The notes: generated by a model from the sequence alone, not told the origin. A stretch of DNA of 64,000 nt from Candidatus Poribacteria bacterium (GCA_963665235.2 CAXXLX010000001.1:4288001-4352000), one strand, 5' to 3'; counted from the stretch's first letter, positions 21,113 through 35,576 are shown. Made by a program: numbers and translations.

Positions 21113-21253
21113 CAAGACTTACGCAGCGCGTTGATAAATCCTTCTGATAGTGGGATTTAGAGGGAGTCCTAGCGGGCGGGGGGACCCCGCCCAGAGGAGC
21201 GGGAAACTGTTTGCCCGAATACTGAGGGGCCTGCTAAATTTGCGTAAGTCCTG
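21113..21253. mobile_element. Putative MITE with TIR CA(A/G)GACTTACGCA
   Basis: CAAGACTTACGCA at 21113 and TGCGTAAGTCCTG at 21241-21253; non-coding interior with a GC hairpin. Confidence 0.55.
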
Positions 21254-21259
21254 ATTATG

Positions 21260-21445
21260 TTATACCATTTTTATTAATTATTCTATCATTACCGGTTGTT
21301 GGAAATGAAACGGAGAACGGAAGACACAAACTGGAAGTTTATGCTACGATAAAGAACACAAACTGGAAGTTTATGCTACGATAAAGAACACAAACTGGAA
21401 GTTTATGCTACAAGAAAGAGACATTTTCAATTAGAAATGGTATAA
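21260..21445 (+). mobile_element. MITE family A copy with 3 REP units
   Basis: TTATACCATTT...AAATGGTATAA; three CAAACTGGAAGTTTATGCTAC units. Confidence 0.75.
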
Positions 21446-21514
21446 CTAGTCATAATGGGATGGAGGCTGCCTGAGGAATATCGGCAGCCTCTTCTGATTT
21501 GTAACCGAACTTAA

Positions 21515-21656
21515 ACTCTGGGTCGAGAGAGTGTGTTATCATAATGATTAGGTCGCAGGTTCGAGCCCTGCCAGCAGTCTGAGCATGTGTCATGTGAAGC
21601 CTACTGTAGCTCAGTGGAAGAGCAAATCAAAATGCATTCCAATCCTTATCCAGAGT
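21515..21656 (+). ncRNA. YrlA-like Y RNA, copy 1
   Basis: Terminal stem ACTCTGGGT-C-GAG / CTT-ATCCAGAGT with bulged C; T-arm GCAGGTTCGAGCCCTGC, closed acceptor-like stem, then D-arm TAGCTCAGTGGAAGAGC; rsr downstream. Confidence 0.85.
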
Positions 21657-21665
21657 CGCATTTGT

Positions 21666-21740
21666 GCGGGCCGAAGTATTGTGTTATCCTCCGTTTACTC
21701 TCGGGGCCGGAATCCCGAGCGCAATACACACCTTGTCCGC
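21666..21740 (+). ncRNA. Short (YrlB-like) Y RNA, copy 1
   Basis: GCGGGC-C-GAAG ... CTT-GTCCGC terminal stem with GNCGAAG motif; inner GTATTGTG/CGCAATAC stem. Confidence 0.75.
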
Positions 21741-21762
21741 CATGAAGAAATATTTTTTTAAT

Positions 21763-21792
21763 TTGACAACAGACACCTAAATGTGATATAAT
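21763..21792 (+). promoter_or_regulatory. Sigma70-like promoter upstream of Y RNA pair 2
   Basis: TTGACA-18 nt-TATAAT, immediately followed by a MITE. Confidence 0.5.
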
Positions 21793-21947
21793 AACCCAAG
21801 TTGCTACTTATAAGTTTTTAGACCTGGAAACACCGTCTTTAATGAAAATATGCTGATAATTAGCTAATATTTGTCCGGTTCACTTCCAATTCGCACACAA
21901 ATATGCACAATCTGGAAGATTATGCTACTATGTGGCAACTTAGGTTA
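21792..21947. mobile_element. MITE family B (TIR ACCCAAGTTGC / GCAACTTAGGT)
   Basis: Near-identical copy at 49111-49268; isolated end at 28835-28847. Confidence 0.8.
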
Positions 21948-22030
21948 TAATATATAATTGCTGTATGAAAATGGATGTGCGCTGCCTAAGAAATATTGGC
22001 AGAGCCTCCTGATTCGAAGCCCAACTTAAA

Positions 22031-22157
22031 CTCTGGGTCGCGAGAGTGTGTTACCCCAGCGCAGGTTCGACTCCTGCCAGTAGACCAAGCTTCATGCGAA
22101 GCCTACTGTAGCTCAGTGGTAGAGCAAAACTTCAACGCATTCTGTTCTTATCCAGAG
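22031..22157 (+). ncRNA. YrlA-like Y RNA, copy 2
   Basis: CTCTGGGTCG...GCAGGTTCGACTCCTGC-CAGTAG...CTACTG-TAGCTCAGTGGTAGAGC...CTTATCCAGAG. Confidence 0.85.
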
Positions 22158-22167
22158 CCATATTTGT

Positions 22168-22225
22168 GCGGGCCGAAGTATTGTGTTATCTTTGAAAGAG
22201 CATTCGCAATACACATCTTGCCCGC
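22168..22225 (+). ncRNA. Short (YrlB-like) Y RNA, copy 2
   Basis: GCGGGCCGAAGTATTGTG...CGCAATAC...CTTGCCCGC. Confidence 0.75.
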
Positions 22226-22273
22226 CACCGATTTATAACTGAAGAATTTAAGGTGAAAATATAGGGAGGAACA

Positions 22274-22651
22274 ATGAAAACGTTTTCGATACAAACACTT
22301 ATCGCGCTATTCCTCATCAGCGGCATACATTTTGTTTTCGCAGATTGTCCTGATGAGCAACTAAAGGCTGAAGGTTCGTTTTTCATCAATGAAGCGGATG
22401 AGGCCTATATCTACGGGCAGGCTTCAGTAAGCAATCTCACCTATTGGCCCGCCAAGAACATTGAGCAAGCCCATTGGCCCGCCCTTCTCTTTAAGAGAGC
22501 TTAGATTAGTAGTGACCACTCCGTCAGTTGCTGGCACTACTATGAAAAAGAAAAAGAGACTTTCACCGTTTATTGGGCATACCGGCTGGTTGTCGATGAG
22601 GATGCACGGTATCAGGCGAATCCGCGATATGGTCCTATGATTCTGCTGTAG
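22274..22651 (+). pseudogene. Small secreted protein interrupted by an in-frame TAG at 22502-22504
   Basis: RBS ggagga and signal peptide; frame stays open for 48 more codons after the TAG, ending at the RBS of the next gene. Confidence 0.5.
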
Positions 22652-22662
22652 GAGAAAAAACA

Positions 22663-23637
22663 ATGCGCACCCTTTTTATTATCAGCATACTCTTCATCAG
22701 TATCGTGCCCGTTGCCTCCGCAAAAATCGTGTGGATGGCGTTCTGGGAAATCTGTGTCATGGACGATGATGGCAGCAACCGCCAAAGATTGACACATAAT
22801 GATCGCTATGACACGAAACCACGCTGGTCACCCAATGGAAAGTGGATCGTTTTTCAGGGCGAACAACCTAAGGAAACCAATGAACAAAATCATGATCTGT
22901 TCCTCATGAATATAGATGGAACACAGATACGGAAACTTACCACCTACACAGGGCTTGATGTAAATCCAGACTGGTCCCCCGATAGTCAACACATAGTCTT
23001 TACAAGTACGCGAGGTGATGTGACGAGTCTTCATATCCTGGATGTTGAGACACAAGATGTCCGCGACCTCACGCGCACCCTAAAGGGGCAGGCCGCGGAT
23101 AGCGCGGCTTGGTCTCATGATGGGAAACAGATTGCCTATGTAGGCAAGACTCTAAACCCCTTCACATCCGCCATCTACATCATAGGGGCAGATGGTAAAA
23201 ACCCACGTGCCCTCTTCCGCCCCGTGGTTGCACAGTACCATTCTCCCGACTGGTCGCCGGATGGGAAACATATTCTGTATGGCGAAAAAAAAGCCGTAGG
23301 CAAAATGCGGATTTCAGATAAAATCGTCATTCGCACCGTTAATGGGAATTTGGTAAAGGAATTAGAAATGCCGGCGCTTGCGAAATGGTCAATACAAGCC
23401 GCTTGTTGGATGGGGACGAAACATGTTCTCATTGATGCCATAGAAGACTTCAAAGCCGCTGATGGGGGGCAGAGTGATATCTATCGGTATACACTATCCA
23501 CCGATGAAATCGTCAATCTCACGAAATCAGATAGAACTAACGACGGTTTTCCGGATTGGATAGATGATGGGGCACTAGCTGTTTCTCCTGTGAGCAAACT
23601 CGCCATCCGATGGGCACAACTCAAGCAAATCCATTAA
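22663..23637 (+). CDS. Secreted TolB-like (PD40 repeat) beta-propeller
   Basis: Signal peptide; P.WSPDG repeats; tail LAVSPVSKLAIRWAQLKQ. Confidence 0.85.
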   Translation: MRTLFIISILFISIVPVASAKIVWMAFWEICVMDDDGSNRQRLTHNDRYDTKPRWSPNGKWIVFQGEQPKETNEQNHDLFLMNIDGTQIRKLTTYTGLDVNPDWSPDSQHIVFTSTRGDVTSLHILDVETQDVRDLTRTLKGQAADSAAWSHDGKQIAYVGKTLNPFTSAIYIIGADGKNPRALFRPVVAQYHSPDWSPDGKHILYGEKKAVGKMRISDKIVIRTVNGNLVKELEMPALAKWSIQAACWMGTKHVLIDAIEDFKAADGGQSDIYRYTLSTDEIVNLTKSDRTNDGFPDWIDDGALAVSPVSKLAIRWAQLKQIH

Positions 23638-23664
23638 GACAGTATCACAACTAAGAAGGTTGAT

Positions 23665-24103
23665 TAACAGTAGCAAAAAATCTGTGTTTTTCAGAACATA
23701 AGCTTATGTTACTAAACCTTTTAGGCAATTAAACGTCTAAATTAATGTTTTACATCTGAATGTTCCGCGTTGTGAGTTGTGTTACTTAAACACCATGTAC
23801 AGAGTGCTTAGCGGGCATCCGCCCAATGTTTGCCTGGGTGGGCACAACCTCTGACAACGAAAGTAGCGAAAACCAAGCTTTGATGGAAATAGCAGGCGGA
23901 AATTGTGATAAAAACCTGCTTGGTAGTGTGACTTCGAAGCACGTAAAAAACATCGAACCTTCACAGAAGAAGCAATAAGCGTTCGCTGCCTTGTGTAGCG
24001 AACTTTGGGAGATGACCCCTGGCTGTATTCGTACAGCTTGCAAAACGTGTGTGGAAGTGAAATACATAGTATTCCACGGAAATATACAGTTTAATATCAT
24101 CGG
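23665..24103 (+). mobile_element. Non-coding structured-RNA element, copy 1 (putative non-autonomous IS200/IS605-like)
   Basis: Follows TTGAT and ends ACAGTTTAATATCATCGG; second copy at 24492-25422 shows compensatory stem changes; no TIR and no transposase. Confidence 0.6.
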
Positions 24104-24208
24104 TAACTGATGCCAACACTCACCCAACTGCGCGATGATGCGTTTTCAGCGTCCCAAGAGGCACATAACCGCATGAAACGGGAGATGGCTATCTACAAAA
24201 ATGAACTT

Positions 24209-24340
24209 AATTCTGGGTCGCGGGGATGTGTTACCGGGTCGCAGGTTCGACTCCTGCCAGTAGACCGAGCGTCATGCGAAGCCTACTGTAGCTCAGTGGT
24301 AGAGCACAATATTCAACGCATTCTGTTCTTATCCAGAATT
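24209..24340 (+). ncRNA. YrlA-like Y RNA, copy 3
   Basis: AATTCTGGGTCG...T-arm, acceptor-like stem, D-arm...CTTATCCAGAATT; terminal stem covaries relative to copies 1 and 2. Confidence 0.85.
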
Positions 24341-24346
24341 TTATTT

Positions 24347-24434
24347 GGCGGGCCGAAGTCCTACGTTAACTGCCCGTATAGTAATACACAAAGTGTATCT
24401 ATACTTAAATATCGTAGTACACACCTTGCCCGCT
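24347..24434 (+). ncRNA. Short (YrlB-like) Y RNA, copy 3
   Basis: GGCGGGCCGAAGTCCTACG...CGTAGTAC...CTTGCCCGCT. Confidence 0.75.
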
Positions 24435-24558
24435 GCCTTAAAAAAACGTTAAAAATATAAACCAAACTTAAACTCTGGGTCGAGGATTGATTAACAGTAG
24501 CAAAAAACCTCTATTTTTCTAGGAACATAAGCTTATGTTCCTAAACCTTTTTGAGAAC

Positions 24559-25027
24559 TTGACATACTCTCCCAGCTAAAGCAAGGGAGATTCTTTTAAA
24601 AAGTTCCGCTACGCGTTAGCTATTGGATTGTGGTTTTCAGACGTGTGAACGTCAACGGAGATGCTTGGGCTGTTCCAAGTCTTACTGCCCCTAACTCAAA
24701 GGAATGCCCTTCGTGCTTCGCACCTTCTTTATGCGTTGTGAATCAGTGCTTTGGTATCCAATGCAGCATGACCCGTCTTTTGGATACCGAAAGCATTGCA
24801 CAAAAATGTGGATATTGACTGGGTATCGCCAGAACATCAGCACACAACCCTACCATAGGTTGAGGTTCGGAACTTCAACATTGGTGGCGTTGAAGGTGGT
24901 AATCCGAACCACTGATGATATATATATTATACCACATTTTAATGCAAAAGTCAAATTAAAATTTTAGCTCATGCGCCGCTACTACATCCCCCAGCTAAAG
25001 CACGGGGGTTTTGTAGCGGAAGACTTG
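24559..25027 (-). mobile_element. Non-autonomous IS200/IS605 (IS605-type) element
   Basis: Minus strand: TTTAT|CAAG...CCCCCGTGCTTTAGCTGGGGG left-end hairpin; right end GAATCTCCCTTGCTTTAGCTGGGAGAGTATGTCAA; no tnpA or tnpB ORF; absent from the sister copy. Confidence 0.8.
24926..24954 (-). promoter_or_regulatory. Near-consensus sigma70 promoter inside the IS605 derivative
   Basis: TTGACT-17 nt-TATAAT with extended -10 TG. Confidence 0.7.
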
Positions 25028-25527
25028 ATAAATTTATGTTTTTAATGTTTTACATCTGAATGTTCCGCGTTGTGAGTCGTGTTACTTAAACACCATGTAC
25101 AGAGTGCTTAGCGGGCATCCGCTCAATGTTTGCCTGGGTGGGCATGACCTCTGACAACGAAAGTAGCGAAAACCAAGCTTTGATGGAAATGAGAGGGCAA
25201 AGAAAACGTGAAAAAACCTCTCTGGTAGTGTGACTTCGAAGCACAATAAAAACCTCGAATATTCACAGTATAAGCGTTCGTTGCCTTGTGTAGCGAACTT
25301 TGGGAGATGACCCCTGGCTGTATTTATACAGCTTGCAAAACGTGTATGGAAGTGAAATACCTAGTGTTCCACAGGCTTCAGGCTACAAGCCTGCTCTTCA
25401 ATATACAGTTTAATATCATCGGCGCACATCATCGGAAGCAAGCAGGTTCGACCCCTGCCGGCGCACTTGTGTTTGACGCGCAAGTTTGCCGAGCAATGTC
25501 CGCTGTTTCTTATCCAGAGACACATTT

Positions 25528-25594
25528 GGCGGGCCGAAGTCCTACGTTAACCTATATTTATCCCATATAACCCGTAGGACACACCTTGCCCGCT
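25528..25594 (+). ncRNA. Short (YrlB-like) Y RNA, copy 4
   Basis: GGCGGGCCGAAGTCCTACG...CGTAGGAC...CTTGCCCGCT, 20 nt before the rsr start codon. Confidence 0.75.
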
Positions 25595-25614
25595 ACATTT
25601 CAAAAGGTGACATC

Positions 25615-27261
25615 ATGAGCTATTTAGGGAAATATTCTCCATTGCATCCACATCAGCGGCAGCCGTTGGACGAAAAACAGGTCCAAAATTCTGCCGGCGG
25701 ATACGCCTATCCTGTCTCTATCTGGACAAACTTAGACCGGTTTCTCATTTTAGGGACCGAAGGCGGCTCCTATTACGCCACAGAACAGGATTTGACGAAG
25801 GTCAATGTCGATGCTGTCAAGCAGTGCATTGCCGAGGATGGGGTTCAAGTTGTTGAGCGGATACGTGAGATTTCTGTCTCCGGGCGCGCCCCGAAAAATG
25901 ACCCCGCATTATACGCACTAGCCCTTGCCTTTACCCATGGCGATACGGCAACGAAACGAAAAGTGGAAGAGGTCTTCTGTGATGTCGCACGTATCGGCAC
26001 ACACCTATTCAACTTTGTGGTGTTTGTAGACGGTATGCGTGGCTGGGGCAGGTCGCTACGCCGATTAGTCGGCAACTGGTACCGCACGAAGGACGATAAC
26101 ACCTTGGCGTATCAGGTCCTGAAATATCAATCTCGGAACAGTTGGCGGCATGCGGATGTCCTTGCAAAGTGCCACTACGGTGAAAACCGGGGCATCTACC
26201 GTTGGATAAAAGGGCTTGACACGGATAAGCGTATTGTGCATCGCACCCTACAAAATGAAGAAAAGACAGCTACCGTTTACGAGGCCACCGACGCTTTGCC
26301 TGAATTGCTCGCCGGATATGAGGACCTGAAACGCACAGAGAAACGCGTGGATGTTATCCAGCTCATTGAGAAACATCAATTCACCCACGAAATGGTGCCG
26401 AACGAGTGGAAAAATGAAACGGAAGTATGGGCGGCGTTGCTACAGAACATGCCCGTTATGGCAACGGTGCGAAACCTCGGTAAGATGACGCAAATCGGGT
26501 TGTTGAAACCTTTTGGAGCAGAGGTTCAAACCGTGCTAGAAAGACTCTCCGCTGAGGCGATTCAACGTTCGCGCATCCATCCTATCCAAATCCTTATGGC
26601 GTTGATAACATACAAGGCAGGTAAGGGAGTGAGAGGCAGCTTAACCTGGGAGCCCGTGCCGCAGATTGTTGATGGGTTGGACGCTGCGTTTTATATGGCG
26701 TTCGATAACGTTGAACCGAGCCAAAAGAACACGCTCCTAGCACTTGATGTCTCTGGGTCAATGGCAGGCAGAACTGTGGCAGGATGTGAAGGCTTAACAC
26801 CGCGTAATGCGTCCGCTGCCATGGCACTCGTAACCGCACGCACGGAACCGCATTATCATATCTTCGGGTTTTCAGAAGGTTTTGTGACCCTGCCGATTAC
26901 AGCAAACGATACGTTGGATAGTGCTATTAAAGCTGTCTCTGGATTGCCCTTTGATGGCACCGATTGCGCTCTCCCCATGCTGTATGCATTGGAACATAAA
27001 CTACAGATAGACACCTTCGTCATCTATACAGATAATGAAACGTGGTATGGCGACATTCATCCGAAAACAGCATTGGACAACTATCGGCAAAAGATGGGGC
27101 GACCCGCAAAGTGTGCTGTTGTCGGGATGGTGGCGAACGACTTCTCTATCGCTGACCCAGAGGATGCGGGCATGCTCGATTTTGTCGGGTTTGATACCGC
27201 TACACCTGCATTGCTCAGTGATTTCGCTAAAGATGCAGACATCTCCGATGAAACGGCGTAA
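25615..27261 (+). CDS. rsr: Ro60-related RNA-binding protein (TROVE + vWA domain)
   Basis: QVQNSAGGY, LDRFLILGTEGGSYY, GRAPKNDP, RIGTHLF, KYQSR..W.H.D, RNLGKMT, MIDAS DVSGSM, GTDCALPM, YTDNETW, GMLDFVGFD. Start moved to ATG 25615 (RBS aaggtga). Confidence 0.95.
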   Translation: MSYLGKYSPLHPHQRQPLDEKQVQNSAGGYAYPVSIWTNLDRFLILGTEGGSYYATEQDLTKVNVDAVKQCIAEDGVQVVERIREISVSGRAPKNDPALYALALAFTHGDTATKRKVEEVFCDVARIGTHLFNFVVFVDGMRGWGRSLRRLVGNWYRTKDDNTLAYQVLKYQSRNSWRHADVLAKCHYGENRGIYRWIKGLDTDKRIVHRTLQNEEKTATVYEATDALPELLAGYEDLKRTEKRVDVIQLIEKHQFTHEMVPNEWKNETEVWAALLQNMPVMATVRNLGKMTQIGLLKPFGAEVQTVLERLSAEAIQRSRIHPIQILMALITYKAGKGVRGSLTWEPVPQIVDGLDAAFYMAFDNVEPSQKNTLLALDVSGSMAGRTVAGCEGLTPRNASAAMALVTARTEPHYHIFGFSEGFVTLPITANDTLDSAIKAVSGLPFDGTDCALPMLYALEHKLQIDTFVIYTDNETWYGDIHPKTALDNYRQKMGRPAKCAVVGMVANDFSIADPEDAGMLDFVGFDTATPALLSDFAKDADISDETA

Positions 27262-27494: not shown

Positions 27495-28121
27495 TTAATC
27501 TGAATAGTTGCATGAGACTTCTTTGTTGAAAAAAATCGGGTCATGCCAATAACATCCGACACACGTTCCATTGTATAATCCATTACCACGCACTTGGCTA
27601 ACTTGATAACCTAAGCGTTTCGCGTCAAAACGCTGCCCTGTCTCTCGACACTCAACACAATGTTGTCTCTTGGCATAATTAGCAGCCTTCGATAGTGGTT
27701 GAAAATCATCAAGTGTTACCTGATTTGCGTCACTCAGCCTCGGGTCGTCCAGTCTTCCGTCTTTATGGTCACACTCTGGACCACTTGTTCCCAATACAAC
27801 ACAGCGTTGTGCCCTCACCTCCTCTCTAATGTTATTGGGTATTGGCTTTTCAGTAACCGGGACTTTTCTAAAGCCTTGCAACTCAACGTGAGTTATTTTA
27901 CCTCTGCCTTCAGGGTGGCGGCGAATATTGTAATATCGTGATAAACTACCGTCTTTGCGTATCCAATCACCCCCGTTTCCAAACTGGAGTGATGCATATT
28001 TTCCTACAAATTCTGTAACTGGAACTGGACAGCTGAAACCGAGATCATCTGGTTTAGCAAGCTGAATAAACAGCGCAGGCTTGCTTCCTTTTCTAAACTG
28101 AGAGCCTTGATCGTTACTCAT
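27495..28121 (-). CDS. IceA1/NlaIII-like HNH restriction endonuclease
   Basis: LAKPD, EFVGKY.SLQ.GNGG.W, DHKDGR.DD.R, DDFQ.L, CVGCY..DP resemble the ICEA family as I recall it. Confidence 0.75.
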   Translation of the reverse strand: MSNDQGSQFRKGSKPALFIQLAKPDDLGFSCPVPVTEFVGKYASLQFGNGGDWIRKDGSLSRYYNIRRHPEGRGKITHVELQGFRKVPVTEKPIPNNIREEVRAQRCVVLGTSGPECDHKDGRLDDPRLSDANQVTLDDFQPLSKAANYAKRQHCVECRETGQRFDAKRLGYQVSQVRGNGLYNGTCVGCYWHDPIFFNKEVSCNYSD

Positions 28122-28815
28122 TCTCAATCCTCTCTTGTGAAATTTTCGCATAATTGGAATCTATATCACATCCTGCAAACCTTCGGAAATTTCTGACGGC
28201 AGCAACACCTGTAGTTCCTGCTCCAAGGAATGGGTCCACAACAAGATCGCCCTGGTTACTGTGCTTGCGCACTAAATCCTCAAATAACTCTAAGGGTTTT
28301 TGTGTAGGGTGTTGTCTTTTACCCTTATGTCGAGGGATTGGATATTCATAGATACCAGAGTCATACTGGCTATGGAAAGTAGGTGTACCAACTTTGACCC
28401 CTGCAACAGCCATTTCTCGACTGTTAGAAAGATAAGTAGAGCGCATATTTAACGGGACAGGGTTGGTTTTCTGCCAGATAATCTGGCGAATCATTTTAAA
28501 TCCTGCTAACTCCATAGCCTCTTTTACCTTACCTATCTTCCAAAGATCATACCACACGATGGCAGTTCCGCCACGACGCAAGGATTTATAAAACACCCTT
28601 GCCATCGCTTCGAGATTTATCTCAACGTGATCCCATACACCGAAGTCCATACTAACGGCGAATTTCTTTTCACCGTTCACCACTGCCGAAAATCCTGTTT
28701 TTTTACTAATGCAATATGGTGGATCTGTTAAGATAAGGTCTACTGATCCAGCCGGTAACGAATCCATAAATTCATGATAATCAGATACTTTGACGCTAAA
28801 TTCTGTAAAGGGCAT
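28114..28815 (-). CDS. N4/N6 DNA methyltransferase, beta class
   Basis: DLILTDPPY ... HPTQKP ... DPFLGAGTT (motif IV before motif I); overlaps the endonuclease start. Confidence 0.9.
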   Translation of the reverse strand: MPFTEFSVKVSDYHEFMDSLPAGSVDLILTDPPYCISKKTGFSAVVNGEKKFAVSMDFGVWDHVEINLEAMARVFYKSLRRGGTAIVWYDLWKIGKVKEAMELAGFKMIRQIIWQKTNPVPLNMRSTYLSNSREMAVAGVKVGTPTFHSQYDSGIYEYPIPRHKGKRQHPTQKPLELFEDLVRKHSNQGDLVVDPFLGAGTTGVAAVRNFRRFAGCDIDSNYAKISQERIENE

Positions 28816-35244: not shown

Positions 35245-35525
35245 GAAAAAACCCTCCCGTTCCAAAACTGGAGACGAGAAGGCTCTATAAGATTACCTTA
35301 CCGTGGTACCACTCCAATTCCCGTTCTCATTTTTTCACTGAGAAAGGGCACTCTTGGGGATGCGATAACGGGCATCACACCGGCTAACCCTACACAACAA
35401 CCCATGCCTTCGGATTAGCAGCTCCAGGGCGACCTTCAGTCGGTAGCACTTGAGGAAACCTCTCAGCCTACGAATTTCCTTCTCTGACAAGCCGAGCCGA
35501 CTTACTCCTCCCCTTCAACGCTTTT
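35245..35525 (-). promoter_or_regulatory. T-box riboswitch (Val, GUC specifier) with terminator
   Basis: Minus strand: AGTA, CAGAGA, GGCTGAGA, GAAG-GTC-G specifier (35431-35433), T-box GAGTGGTACCACG (35302-35314), terminator CCTTCTCGT...ACGGGAGGG-TTTTTT. Confidence 0.9.
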
Positions 35526-35576
35526 TTTGTAAATTTAATTCAACGTGTTACTAAAAATTGTGTTTCCTTTTTTTAA

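Follow-up and report, generated by a model that had tools for sequence, protein, structure and literature searches.

The 64,000-nt window analysed here (GCA_963665235.2, CAXXLX010000001.1:4288001-4352000; Candidatus Poribacteria) holds four tandem pairs of Y RNAs, each consisting of a long, YrlA-like RNA and a short hairpin RNA, upstream of rsr, which encodes an orthologue of the RNA-binding protein Ro60. We consider it probable that one ancestral cassette was duplicated into four diverging pairs, whose RNAs are bound by Ro60 after processing, and that mobile elements are secondary to this history. Poribacteria are bacteria of the sponge-symbiont type. The host is uncultured and known as a 5.3-Mb metagenome-assembled genome (92.6% complete, 5.65% contamination), in which the whole array sits on one 4.36-Mb contig.

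An earlier reading, made by a model from the DNA alone (the sequence-only reading), had described four long-plus-short units, each led by AACTTAA, before a TROVE/vWA gene. The sequence and Pfam confirm this layout: the units occupy window positions 21516-25594 (Table 1), and 20 nt separate the last short RNA from the rsr ATG at 25615. All four linkers between long and short RNA contain ATTTG, as the same reading had it; they measure 10, 10, 9 and 9 nt, a narrower range than the 6-10 nt it gave. Long RNAs 2, 3 and 4 begin 3.6, 1.4 and 1.1 kb 5' of the rsr ATG on the same strand, and long RNA 1 lies at 4.1 kb, at the edge of the range of about 4 kb in which YrlA is encoded, solely because about 3 kb of insertions intervene. 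When the signature formed by the 3' end of the long RNA, the linker and the 5' end of the short RNA was sought with at most 2 mismatches, it was found at five places in the genome, namely the four units and one remote copy of unit 1. Rsr itself has 548 residues with TROVE and vWA_Ro60 domains, matches the Deinococcus radiodurans Rsr structure 2nvo (E 1.9e-126) and has its closest relatives (73-84% identity) in Candidatus Poribacteria; its gene is single copy. None of the eight Y RNAs in the window was detected by ARAGORN or by Rfam at gathering thresholds, which reported a T-box elsewhere only.

Long RNAs 1-3 carry a terminal stem with a bulged C, a mid stem and then, in permuted order, a T-arm, a closed acceptor-like stem and a D-arm. 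The permuted tRNA mimic that had been proposed for them is borne out by YrlA matches, folds and covariation. At relaxed thresholds the Rfam YrlA model (RF02553) matched long RNA 3 best, followed by long RNAs 2 and 1 (Table 1), and gave no match to long RNA 4. The Levitt pair G15:C48 is kept in long RNAs 1-3 and in 21 of 22 long RNAs from kin. The TA linker between the acceptor and D stems, the GG of the D-loop and YUAY are likewise all kept in the three RNAs, and the long-RNA alignment has the T-loop UUCGA of YrlA. Contiguous acceptor stems measure 3, 6 and 6 bp in long RNAs 1, 2 and 3 and at least 7 bp in 16 of the 22 kin RNAs. RNase P cleavage in Mycobacterium smegmatis is tied to a 7-bp acceptor stem (PMC4201824); because the stems of long RNAs 1-3 are shorter, cleavage in that style is not predicted here. 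We file the three RNAs, from their predicted structure, as YrlA-like and not as RF02553 members, since they score under the cut-off of the model and depart from the YrlA 5' motif. Two of the D-arms resemble particular tRNAs of the genome: that of long RNA 1 (21598-21626) is identical to the D-arm of tRNA-Thr(cgt) along 21 nt, in which the unusual loop GGAAG, present in one of 24 long RNAs, is one substitution away from the common D-loop, and that of long RNA 3 (24284-24309) equals a tRNA-Met(cat) over 22 nt. Either chance or conversion could account for these matches.

The short RNAs are all long hairpins near rsr with an exact GNCGAAN0-1G motif and no tRNA module (4/4), and the upper stems of short RNAs 3 and 4 hold double compensatory changes. 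Covariation was examined for both types. Among 24 distinct long RNAs, five helices pair in 96.2% of 816 cells, and both partners vary at 10 of 34 pairs; among 26 distinct short RNAs, 93.0% of 416 cells are paired and 6 of 16 pairs change on both sides. For neither fold did any of 500 shuffles match the paired percentage, and slid controls gave 28-50%. The bulged C is invariant in the long and short alignments, whose terminal stems of 8 bp and 6 bp show two-sided changes. The bulged-C stems of the sequence-only reading therefore covary in both folds across related Poribacteria, with weak pairs above the bulge.

That reading had counted eight intact RNAs. In this strain the halves of long RNA 4 are separated by 937 nt, which leaves seven intact RNAs and one interrupted. 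The ends of the 937-nt insert match seven elements of 1.6-1.8 kb in the genome; the one of these seven that was scanned encodes a TnpA with MerR-type helix-turn-helix and resolvase domains, and TnpB, which places them in the IS607 family. The left junction is GG in 8 of 9 IS607-type copies (GA in the long-4 copy) and the right end is GG in all 9. The middle of the long-4 element resembles TnpB over its last ~30 codons only. A second gene-less copy of this type lies within the array at 23660-24103. About 250 nt inside the two gene-less elements (23742-24000 and 25042-25295) are 88% alike and absent from the full-length IS607 copies; a search of 100 relatives found this segment in none, save one 34-nt match at E 5.5e-4. 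Nested in the long-4 element at about 24559-25033 (~470 nt) is a miniature inverted-repeat transposable element (MITE) with nine near-full copies in the genome, whose ends match elements carrying a 400-aa TnpB-like open reading frame (ORF). From its motifs, and not from a domain scan, we take the ORF to be TnpB-like, and the MITE to be IS200/IS605-like.

Alleles of the region were read from 4 of 12 listed public runs mapped on it. In DNA run X6 one contig passes from 24484 to 25422 with a single intervening base; a second, weaker contig, from an RNA library, has nearly the same joint. This empty-site allele folds as a complete 112-nt Y RNA (z -2.76; 3 of 200 shuffles as good) with the terminal stem, bulged C, mid stem, T-arm and a long acceptor-like stem, and without a D-arm. 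The D-arm is also absent when long RNA 4 is aligned to the long-RNA model R1, so that the RNA departs from the permuted module of YrlA. Since the empty-site allele yields a complete Y RNA, the insert is a transposon footprint in a real gene. An exact 21-nt pattern taken from long RNA 4 had no match in metagenome contigs.

To place the array in its lineage, we surveyed relatives. Rsr was found in 15 of 60, and 14 of these are among the 15 genomes of one sister genus. In the 14 rsr loci that were read, four of them with less than 4 kb of contig upstream, we found two pairs in eight, one pair in five and one pair with a lone short RNA in the last; none has a gene between pairs, and the linker is 8-10 nt in 22 of 22 pairs. 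A model (R1) built from 25 long RNAs, with 48 candidates scored per genome, gave matches of at least 75 bits in 27 of 32 sister-genus genomes (two in 13, one in 14, none more). The model, which can miss D-arm-less forms, gave no strong match in 38 genomes of four other genera. Weak matches of 30-38 bits were excluded from the counts as probable tRNAs; one in the window genome overlaps tRNA genes. In total, the window genome holds three intact long RNAs in the array, a fourth at the remote site, and the interrupted long RNA 4. Because kin hold one or two pairs only, the four pairs and the remote partial copy are an expansion in this lineage, in agreement with the claim of an expanded Y-RNA set for a single Ro60.

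The remote copy of unit 1 is 99% identical to it, lies 78 kb away on the opposite strand and covers window positions 21441-21734 with the leader. It has a promoter-like site of its own (TTGACA-18-TACAAT) and is truncated within the short RNA, whose 3' strand it lacks. It lies between two small ORFs that we take to be a toxin-antitoxin-like pair and a gene that probably encodes argininosuccinate synthase. Within the array the Y-RNA copies are 64-90% identical. Long RNAs 2 and 3 (90%) are sisters with support 97/98, short RNAs 3 and 4 (85%) group at 90/91, unstarred, and short RNAs 1 and 2 are 85% alike; long RNA 4 is 67-71% identical to the other long RNAs. The trees are short and mostly unresolved, with long 2 plus long 3 the only starred grouping of window RNAs, and we claim no order of duplications. 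The offset between the pairings of long and short RNAs would fit repeated unequal duplication or conversion. One relative (G007) has a long Y RNA alone on one contig (L111:1322-1444) and a lone short RNA at its rsr locus (L025), which looks like a pair separated by a rearrangement.

Outside this group, a poribacterium of another family (L032, G044) has four Y-like hairpins of a different subtype in the 462 nt before rsr, one of which shows a T-arm-like loop and no evident D-arm. In another bacterium (L076:3752-4830), a single hairpin Y RNA stands before rsr together with about five units shaped like tRNAs; these units follow the normal, unpermuted order, and a Y-like module apparently takes the place of their anticodon arm. 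The statement that bacterial rsr loci usually have one or two Y RNAs is therefore too low, as at least four Y-like RNAs occur at these two loci. A member of the Chloroflexota has tRNA genes for Pro, Lys and His directly 5' of rsr, together with a tRNA-like match of 127 nt (L074:4129-4744).

Table 1. Features of the Y-RNA array and its surroundings (window positions unless another contig is named)
Feature	Position	Strand	Basis
Multi-copy repeat element with 32-nt tandem array	21240..21449 (left boundary approximate)	.	Repeat comparison
Leader hairpin before long RNA 1	21460..21492	+	Stem from sequence
Long Y RNA 1, YrlA-like	21516..21655	+	Rfam YrlA 27.5 bits, E 0.007; fold; covariation
Short hairpin Y RNA 1, GCCGAAG motif, without tRNA module	21666..21741	+	Fold, covariation
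Putative sigma-70 consensus promoter, 12/12, extended TG	21763..21792	+	Consensus match only
MITE with terminal inverted repeats, at -10 box / start of unit-2 leader	21787..21952	.	
Long Y RNA 2, YrlA-like	22031..22157	+	Rfam YrlA 31.0 bits; fold z -2.74
Short hairpin Y RNA 2	22168..22226	+	Fold z -3.75
1,962-nt insert with 4-nt direct repeat at boundaries	22240..24201	+	Empty-site joint, Pfam, paralogues
Insert: small ORF	22274..22504	+	
Insert: TolB-like PD40 propeller gene	22663..23637	+	
Insert: IS607-type MITE	23660..24103	+	
Long Y RNA 3, YrlA-like	24211..24338	+	Rfam YrlA 36.4 bits, E 1.9e-5, full model
Short hairpin Y RNA 3	24348..24434	+	Fold z -3.47
Long Y RNA 4, interrupted (5' stem strand 24473-24484, body 25422-25519)	24473..25519	+	Empty-site joint, fold
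Non-autonomous IS607-type element	24485..25421	+	Ends common to TnpA-serine/TnpB elements
Short hairpin Y RNA 4	25529..25594	+	Fold z -4.43
rsr, Ro60 orthologue, 548 aa, TROVE + vWA	25615..27261	+	Pfam, structure match
Remote unit-1 copy	L033:5447-5750 = G000:C1:4231456-4231750	minus	99% identity

Five mobile elements have inserted into the array of about 4.1 kb; the genome as a whole is rich in such elements. The sequence-only reading had placed protein cargo between the units. In runs X6, X7 and X8, 22239 joins 24202 across the 4-nt repeat, unit 2 runs directly into unit 3, and the TolB-like gene sits on separate contigs; three paralogous DNA copies of the insert, 82-84% identical, lie elsewhere in the genome. 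Because it is absent from another population and its paralogues lie elsewhere, the TolB-like insert is an unrelated passenger and not part of the Y-RNA module. The small ORF of the insert (22274-22650) contains stop codons here; other populations differ at 22488 and 22504, and the gene may be longer there. The repeat element just 5' of unit 1, whose two ends have 32 and 148 near-full matches in the genome, appears to have displaced the -35 box of unit 1, because the remote unit-1 copy has TTGACA-18-TACAAT at this place. The MITE at the start of the unit-2 leader has 46 near-full genome copies and is absent in X6 (joint 21793->21964). Related hairpins stand in the leaders of unit 1 and unit 2 (the latter at about 21975-22007; 81% over 81 nt), and may be a processing signal or an extra small RNA.

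The sigma-70-like promoter at 21763-21792 would serve units 2-4 and probably rsr too. Among the kin, 11 of 14 loci have a match of at least 10/12 to the sigma-70 consensus within 200 nt of the first RNA, a count without a chance control. On the plus strand no terminator-like sites were found between the Y RNAs, except two inside the long-4 insert, and these may reduce read-through to short RNA 4 and rsr in this strain. Units 1-3 also occur among the contigs of two RNA-library assemblies; such contigs carry no information on transcript ends, strand or level. The contigs of RNA libraries X7 and X8 are deeper over units 2-3 than over rsr, an observation that we did not use because the depth of contigs gives no ranking of genes and the libraries may contain DNA.

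As the sequence-only reading had noted for the window, rtcB and rtcR are not nearby: rtcB is 945 kb away from rsr, and neither RtcR nor RtcA was found when sought in the 92.6%-complete genome. The locus is not an RtcR-controlled RNA-repair operon. The genome's rtcB (L001, G000:C1:3342010-3344081) comes immediately after a copy of the nested IS605-like MITE of long RNA 4. PNPase and a Dus gene are present in the genome. Downstream, an IceA-family nuclease and an N6/N4 methylase (27495-28815, minus strand), likely a restriction-modification pair, converge on rsr. A T-box leader lies at 35267-35527 (minus strand), followed by what are presumably acetolactate synthase / ilvC genes.

In the proposed explanation, the ancestral poribacterial rsr leader would have held one cassette, in which a YrlA-like tRNA mimic was joined by a U-rich linker of 8-10 nt to a YrlB-like hairpin. 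Tandem duplication in the host species would have produced the four pairs, a fifth, partial copy would have landed 78 kb away, and the copies would then have diverged with their stems retained. By analogy with Salmonella, M. smegmatis and D. radiodurans, sigma-70 promoters would give polycistronic precursors running into rsr, and nucleases would cut the single-stranded U-rich linkers. Rsr would bind the bulged-C terminal stem of each RNA and stabilise it. The tRNA-elbow end of the long RNAs could tether Rsr to an effector such as PNPase for the decay of structured RNA, and the hairpin Y RNAs may gate or re-target Rsr, as they would in the analogous systems. The IS607-type MITE has knocked out long RNA 4 in this strain.

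Several observations weigh against this explanation. The covariance-model check proposed in the sequence-only reading gave a mixed result: long RNAs 1-3 are recognised at 27-36 bits, below the YrlA cut-off of 69, and the YrlB and Y_RNA models left the short RNAs unmatched at E up to 10 in 21200-25700. The GNCGAAN0-1G motif is missed by one base in long RNAs 1 and 4 and by two in long RNAs 2 and 3. Long RNAs 1 and 3 alone fold no better than shuffles (z -1.2 and -1.1). Above the bulged C, the long-RNA pairs 12-140 and 13-139 fail in 8 and 7 of 24 rows, and the short-RNA pair 11-80 fails in 25 of 26. The poor keeping of these pairs is in line with Ro60 reading chiefly the 5' strand of the stem (PMC4201824). 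Both alignments consist of related sequences from which the structures themselves were drawn, and the shuffle controls therefore exaggerate the support. The empty site of long RNA 4 comes from one DNA contig (depth 13, with 83 nt on its short side) and one weak RNA-library contig, both of a single study, and whether the cargo was gained here or lost in the other population we infer from kin.

We give almost no credence to an assembly artefact as the source of the repeats. This is a metagenome assembly with the contamination stated above, and no contig listed for another run spans the whole array; the copies, however, are too unlike one another to be duplicates, the array lies well within a multi-megabase contig, and contigs from two further studies reproduce unit 1, the unit 2-3 junction, the empty site of unit 4 and the short-4/rsr junction. 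A TTGAT at the left junction of the long-4 element, which we take to be an IS605 IStron target, prompted the idea of a self-splicing, IStron-like intron that would allow all eight RNAs to be made. IStrons of the IS607 family do exist (10.1101/2023.11.20.567912), the ~250 nt inside the element are not common to full-length IS607 copies, and the joined form occurs in an RNA-library contig. That form occurs also in a DNA run, where an empty allele explains it, and the strain's two junctions do not rejoin to exactly the X6 allele. The element's ends match intron-less IS607 elements, and in seven full-length relatives tnpA follows the left end directly. The group I and II models, which can miss divergent introns, matched neither copy at E up to 10, and the uninterrupted copy has an unremarkable fold, no better than shuffles (z -1.44). 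We rejected the intron, which is very improbable.

Each unit might instead act as one uncut RNA of ~210 nt with two Ro60-binding stems that bridges two Rsr rings. The near-constant linker in kin and window, the duplication of the pair as a unit and an RNA-library contig spanning long 2, short 2 and long 3 would suit this, although contigs cannot show a transcript. Each half, however, closes its own terminal stem, the long and short RNAs of G007 stand alone at different places, and the M. smegmatis precedent is processed (PMC4201824); we find the uncut form quite improbable. A further reading is compatible with cassette duplication and goes beyond it: each copy would have come to serve a different partner, for example by mimicking a particular tRNA in the role of decoy or adaptor, with the D-arm-less long RNA 4 recruiting another effector. 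It is suggested by the divergence of long RNA 4 with full stems kept, by the compensatory changes in short RNAs 3 and 4, and by the Thr and Met D-arms. Yet the Thr match needs one substitution from the common D-loop, long RNA 4 is disrupted here, the five insertions suggest relaxed selection on single copies, and kin manage with one or two pairs. We regard such specialisation as unlikely. Similarly doubtful is its fullest form, in which a self-contained, duplicable cassette is used for a constitutive, RtcR-independent set of differently tuned tRNA mimics (with Thr-CGT and Met-CAT D-arms and a D-arm-less form) that act separately, each as a decoy or adaptor, and might stay uncut, as two-site RNAs bridging two Ro60 rings. 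If it were true, strains that carry the IS607 insertion in long RNA 4 and strains that lack it would form a natural knockout pair.

The Y RNAs of three bacterial species have been worked out, and all eight of the window escape standard annotation. For both types of poribacterial Y RNA the locus yields a clean alignment with covariation, and it shows growth in Y-RNA number from one to two to four pairs by duplication of the whole cassette. A natural D-arm-less derivative, together with alleles with and without one RNA, helps to ask what the tRNA-like end is for. The general picture of Y RNAs is unchanged by the locus.

By analogy, the locus would work like the YrlA/YrlB system. The long RNAs share with YrlA of Salmonella Typhimurium and M. 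smegmatis (PMC4201824, 10.1101/312249) a position adjoining rsr on the same strand, the permuted T-arm, closed acceptor-like stem and D-arm, and the Levitt pair, UA linker and YUAY; the 6-bp acceptor stem of long RNAs 2 and 3 is that of Salmonella YrlA. Unlike YrlA, they fall under the Rfam cut-off, have GUCGAG/GUCGCG in place of GNCGAAG as the 5' motif and conserve both strands of the Ro-binding stem, and they occur as three intact copies, a D-arm-less fourth and a remote fifth. The short RNAs resemble YrlB of S. Typhimurium and M. smegmatis and Yrn2 of D. radiodurans (PMC4201824) in being long hairpins with an exact GNCGAAG, encoded between the tRNA mimic and rsr. They differ in number (four, each joined to a long RNA by a 9-10-nt linker), in their freely varying loops at lengths of 59-87 nt and in having no Rfam match. 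The YrlA and YrlB genes of M. smegmatis precede rsr, and a single precursor is processed into both RNAs (PMC4201824). The Salmonella rsr-yrlBA-rtcBA operon (PMC7790460) also combines Rsr with a YrlA/YrlB pair, whereas in the window genome rtcB is far off, RtcR and RtcA were not found and the promoters look like sigma-70 sites.

IS607 elements end at GG without target duplication, and their parents encode a serine TnpA and TnpB (PMC6188088). The long-4 insert agrees in its right-end GG, in the lack of a target duplication and in sharing ends with serine-TnpA/TnpB elements, and differs in being gene-less, in the GA at its left junction and in the nested MITE. The cluster upstream of rsr in D. 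radiodurans comprises five small RNAs, Yrn1, Yrn2 and RNAs a, b and d (PMC4201824). It, too, places several small RNAs, some with a T-arm only, 5' of rsr in a polycistronic precursor; its RNAs are dissimilar and of separate lineage, whereas the window repeats one two-RNA cassette. We found no description of poribacterial Y RNAs or of tandem amplification of whole pairs in the Y-RNA literature as far as its available text extends; the supplementary lists of YrlA loci in PMC4201824 lie outside that text and may hold multi-copy loci. Many Y-like RNAs before rsr are an already known kind of cluster, and the locus is not unique in this respect. The locus stands out by the size of the array, its cassette-wise repetition, a fourth copy devoid of a D-arm and the existence of natural alleles that have or lack this copy.

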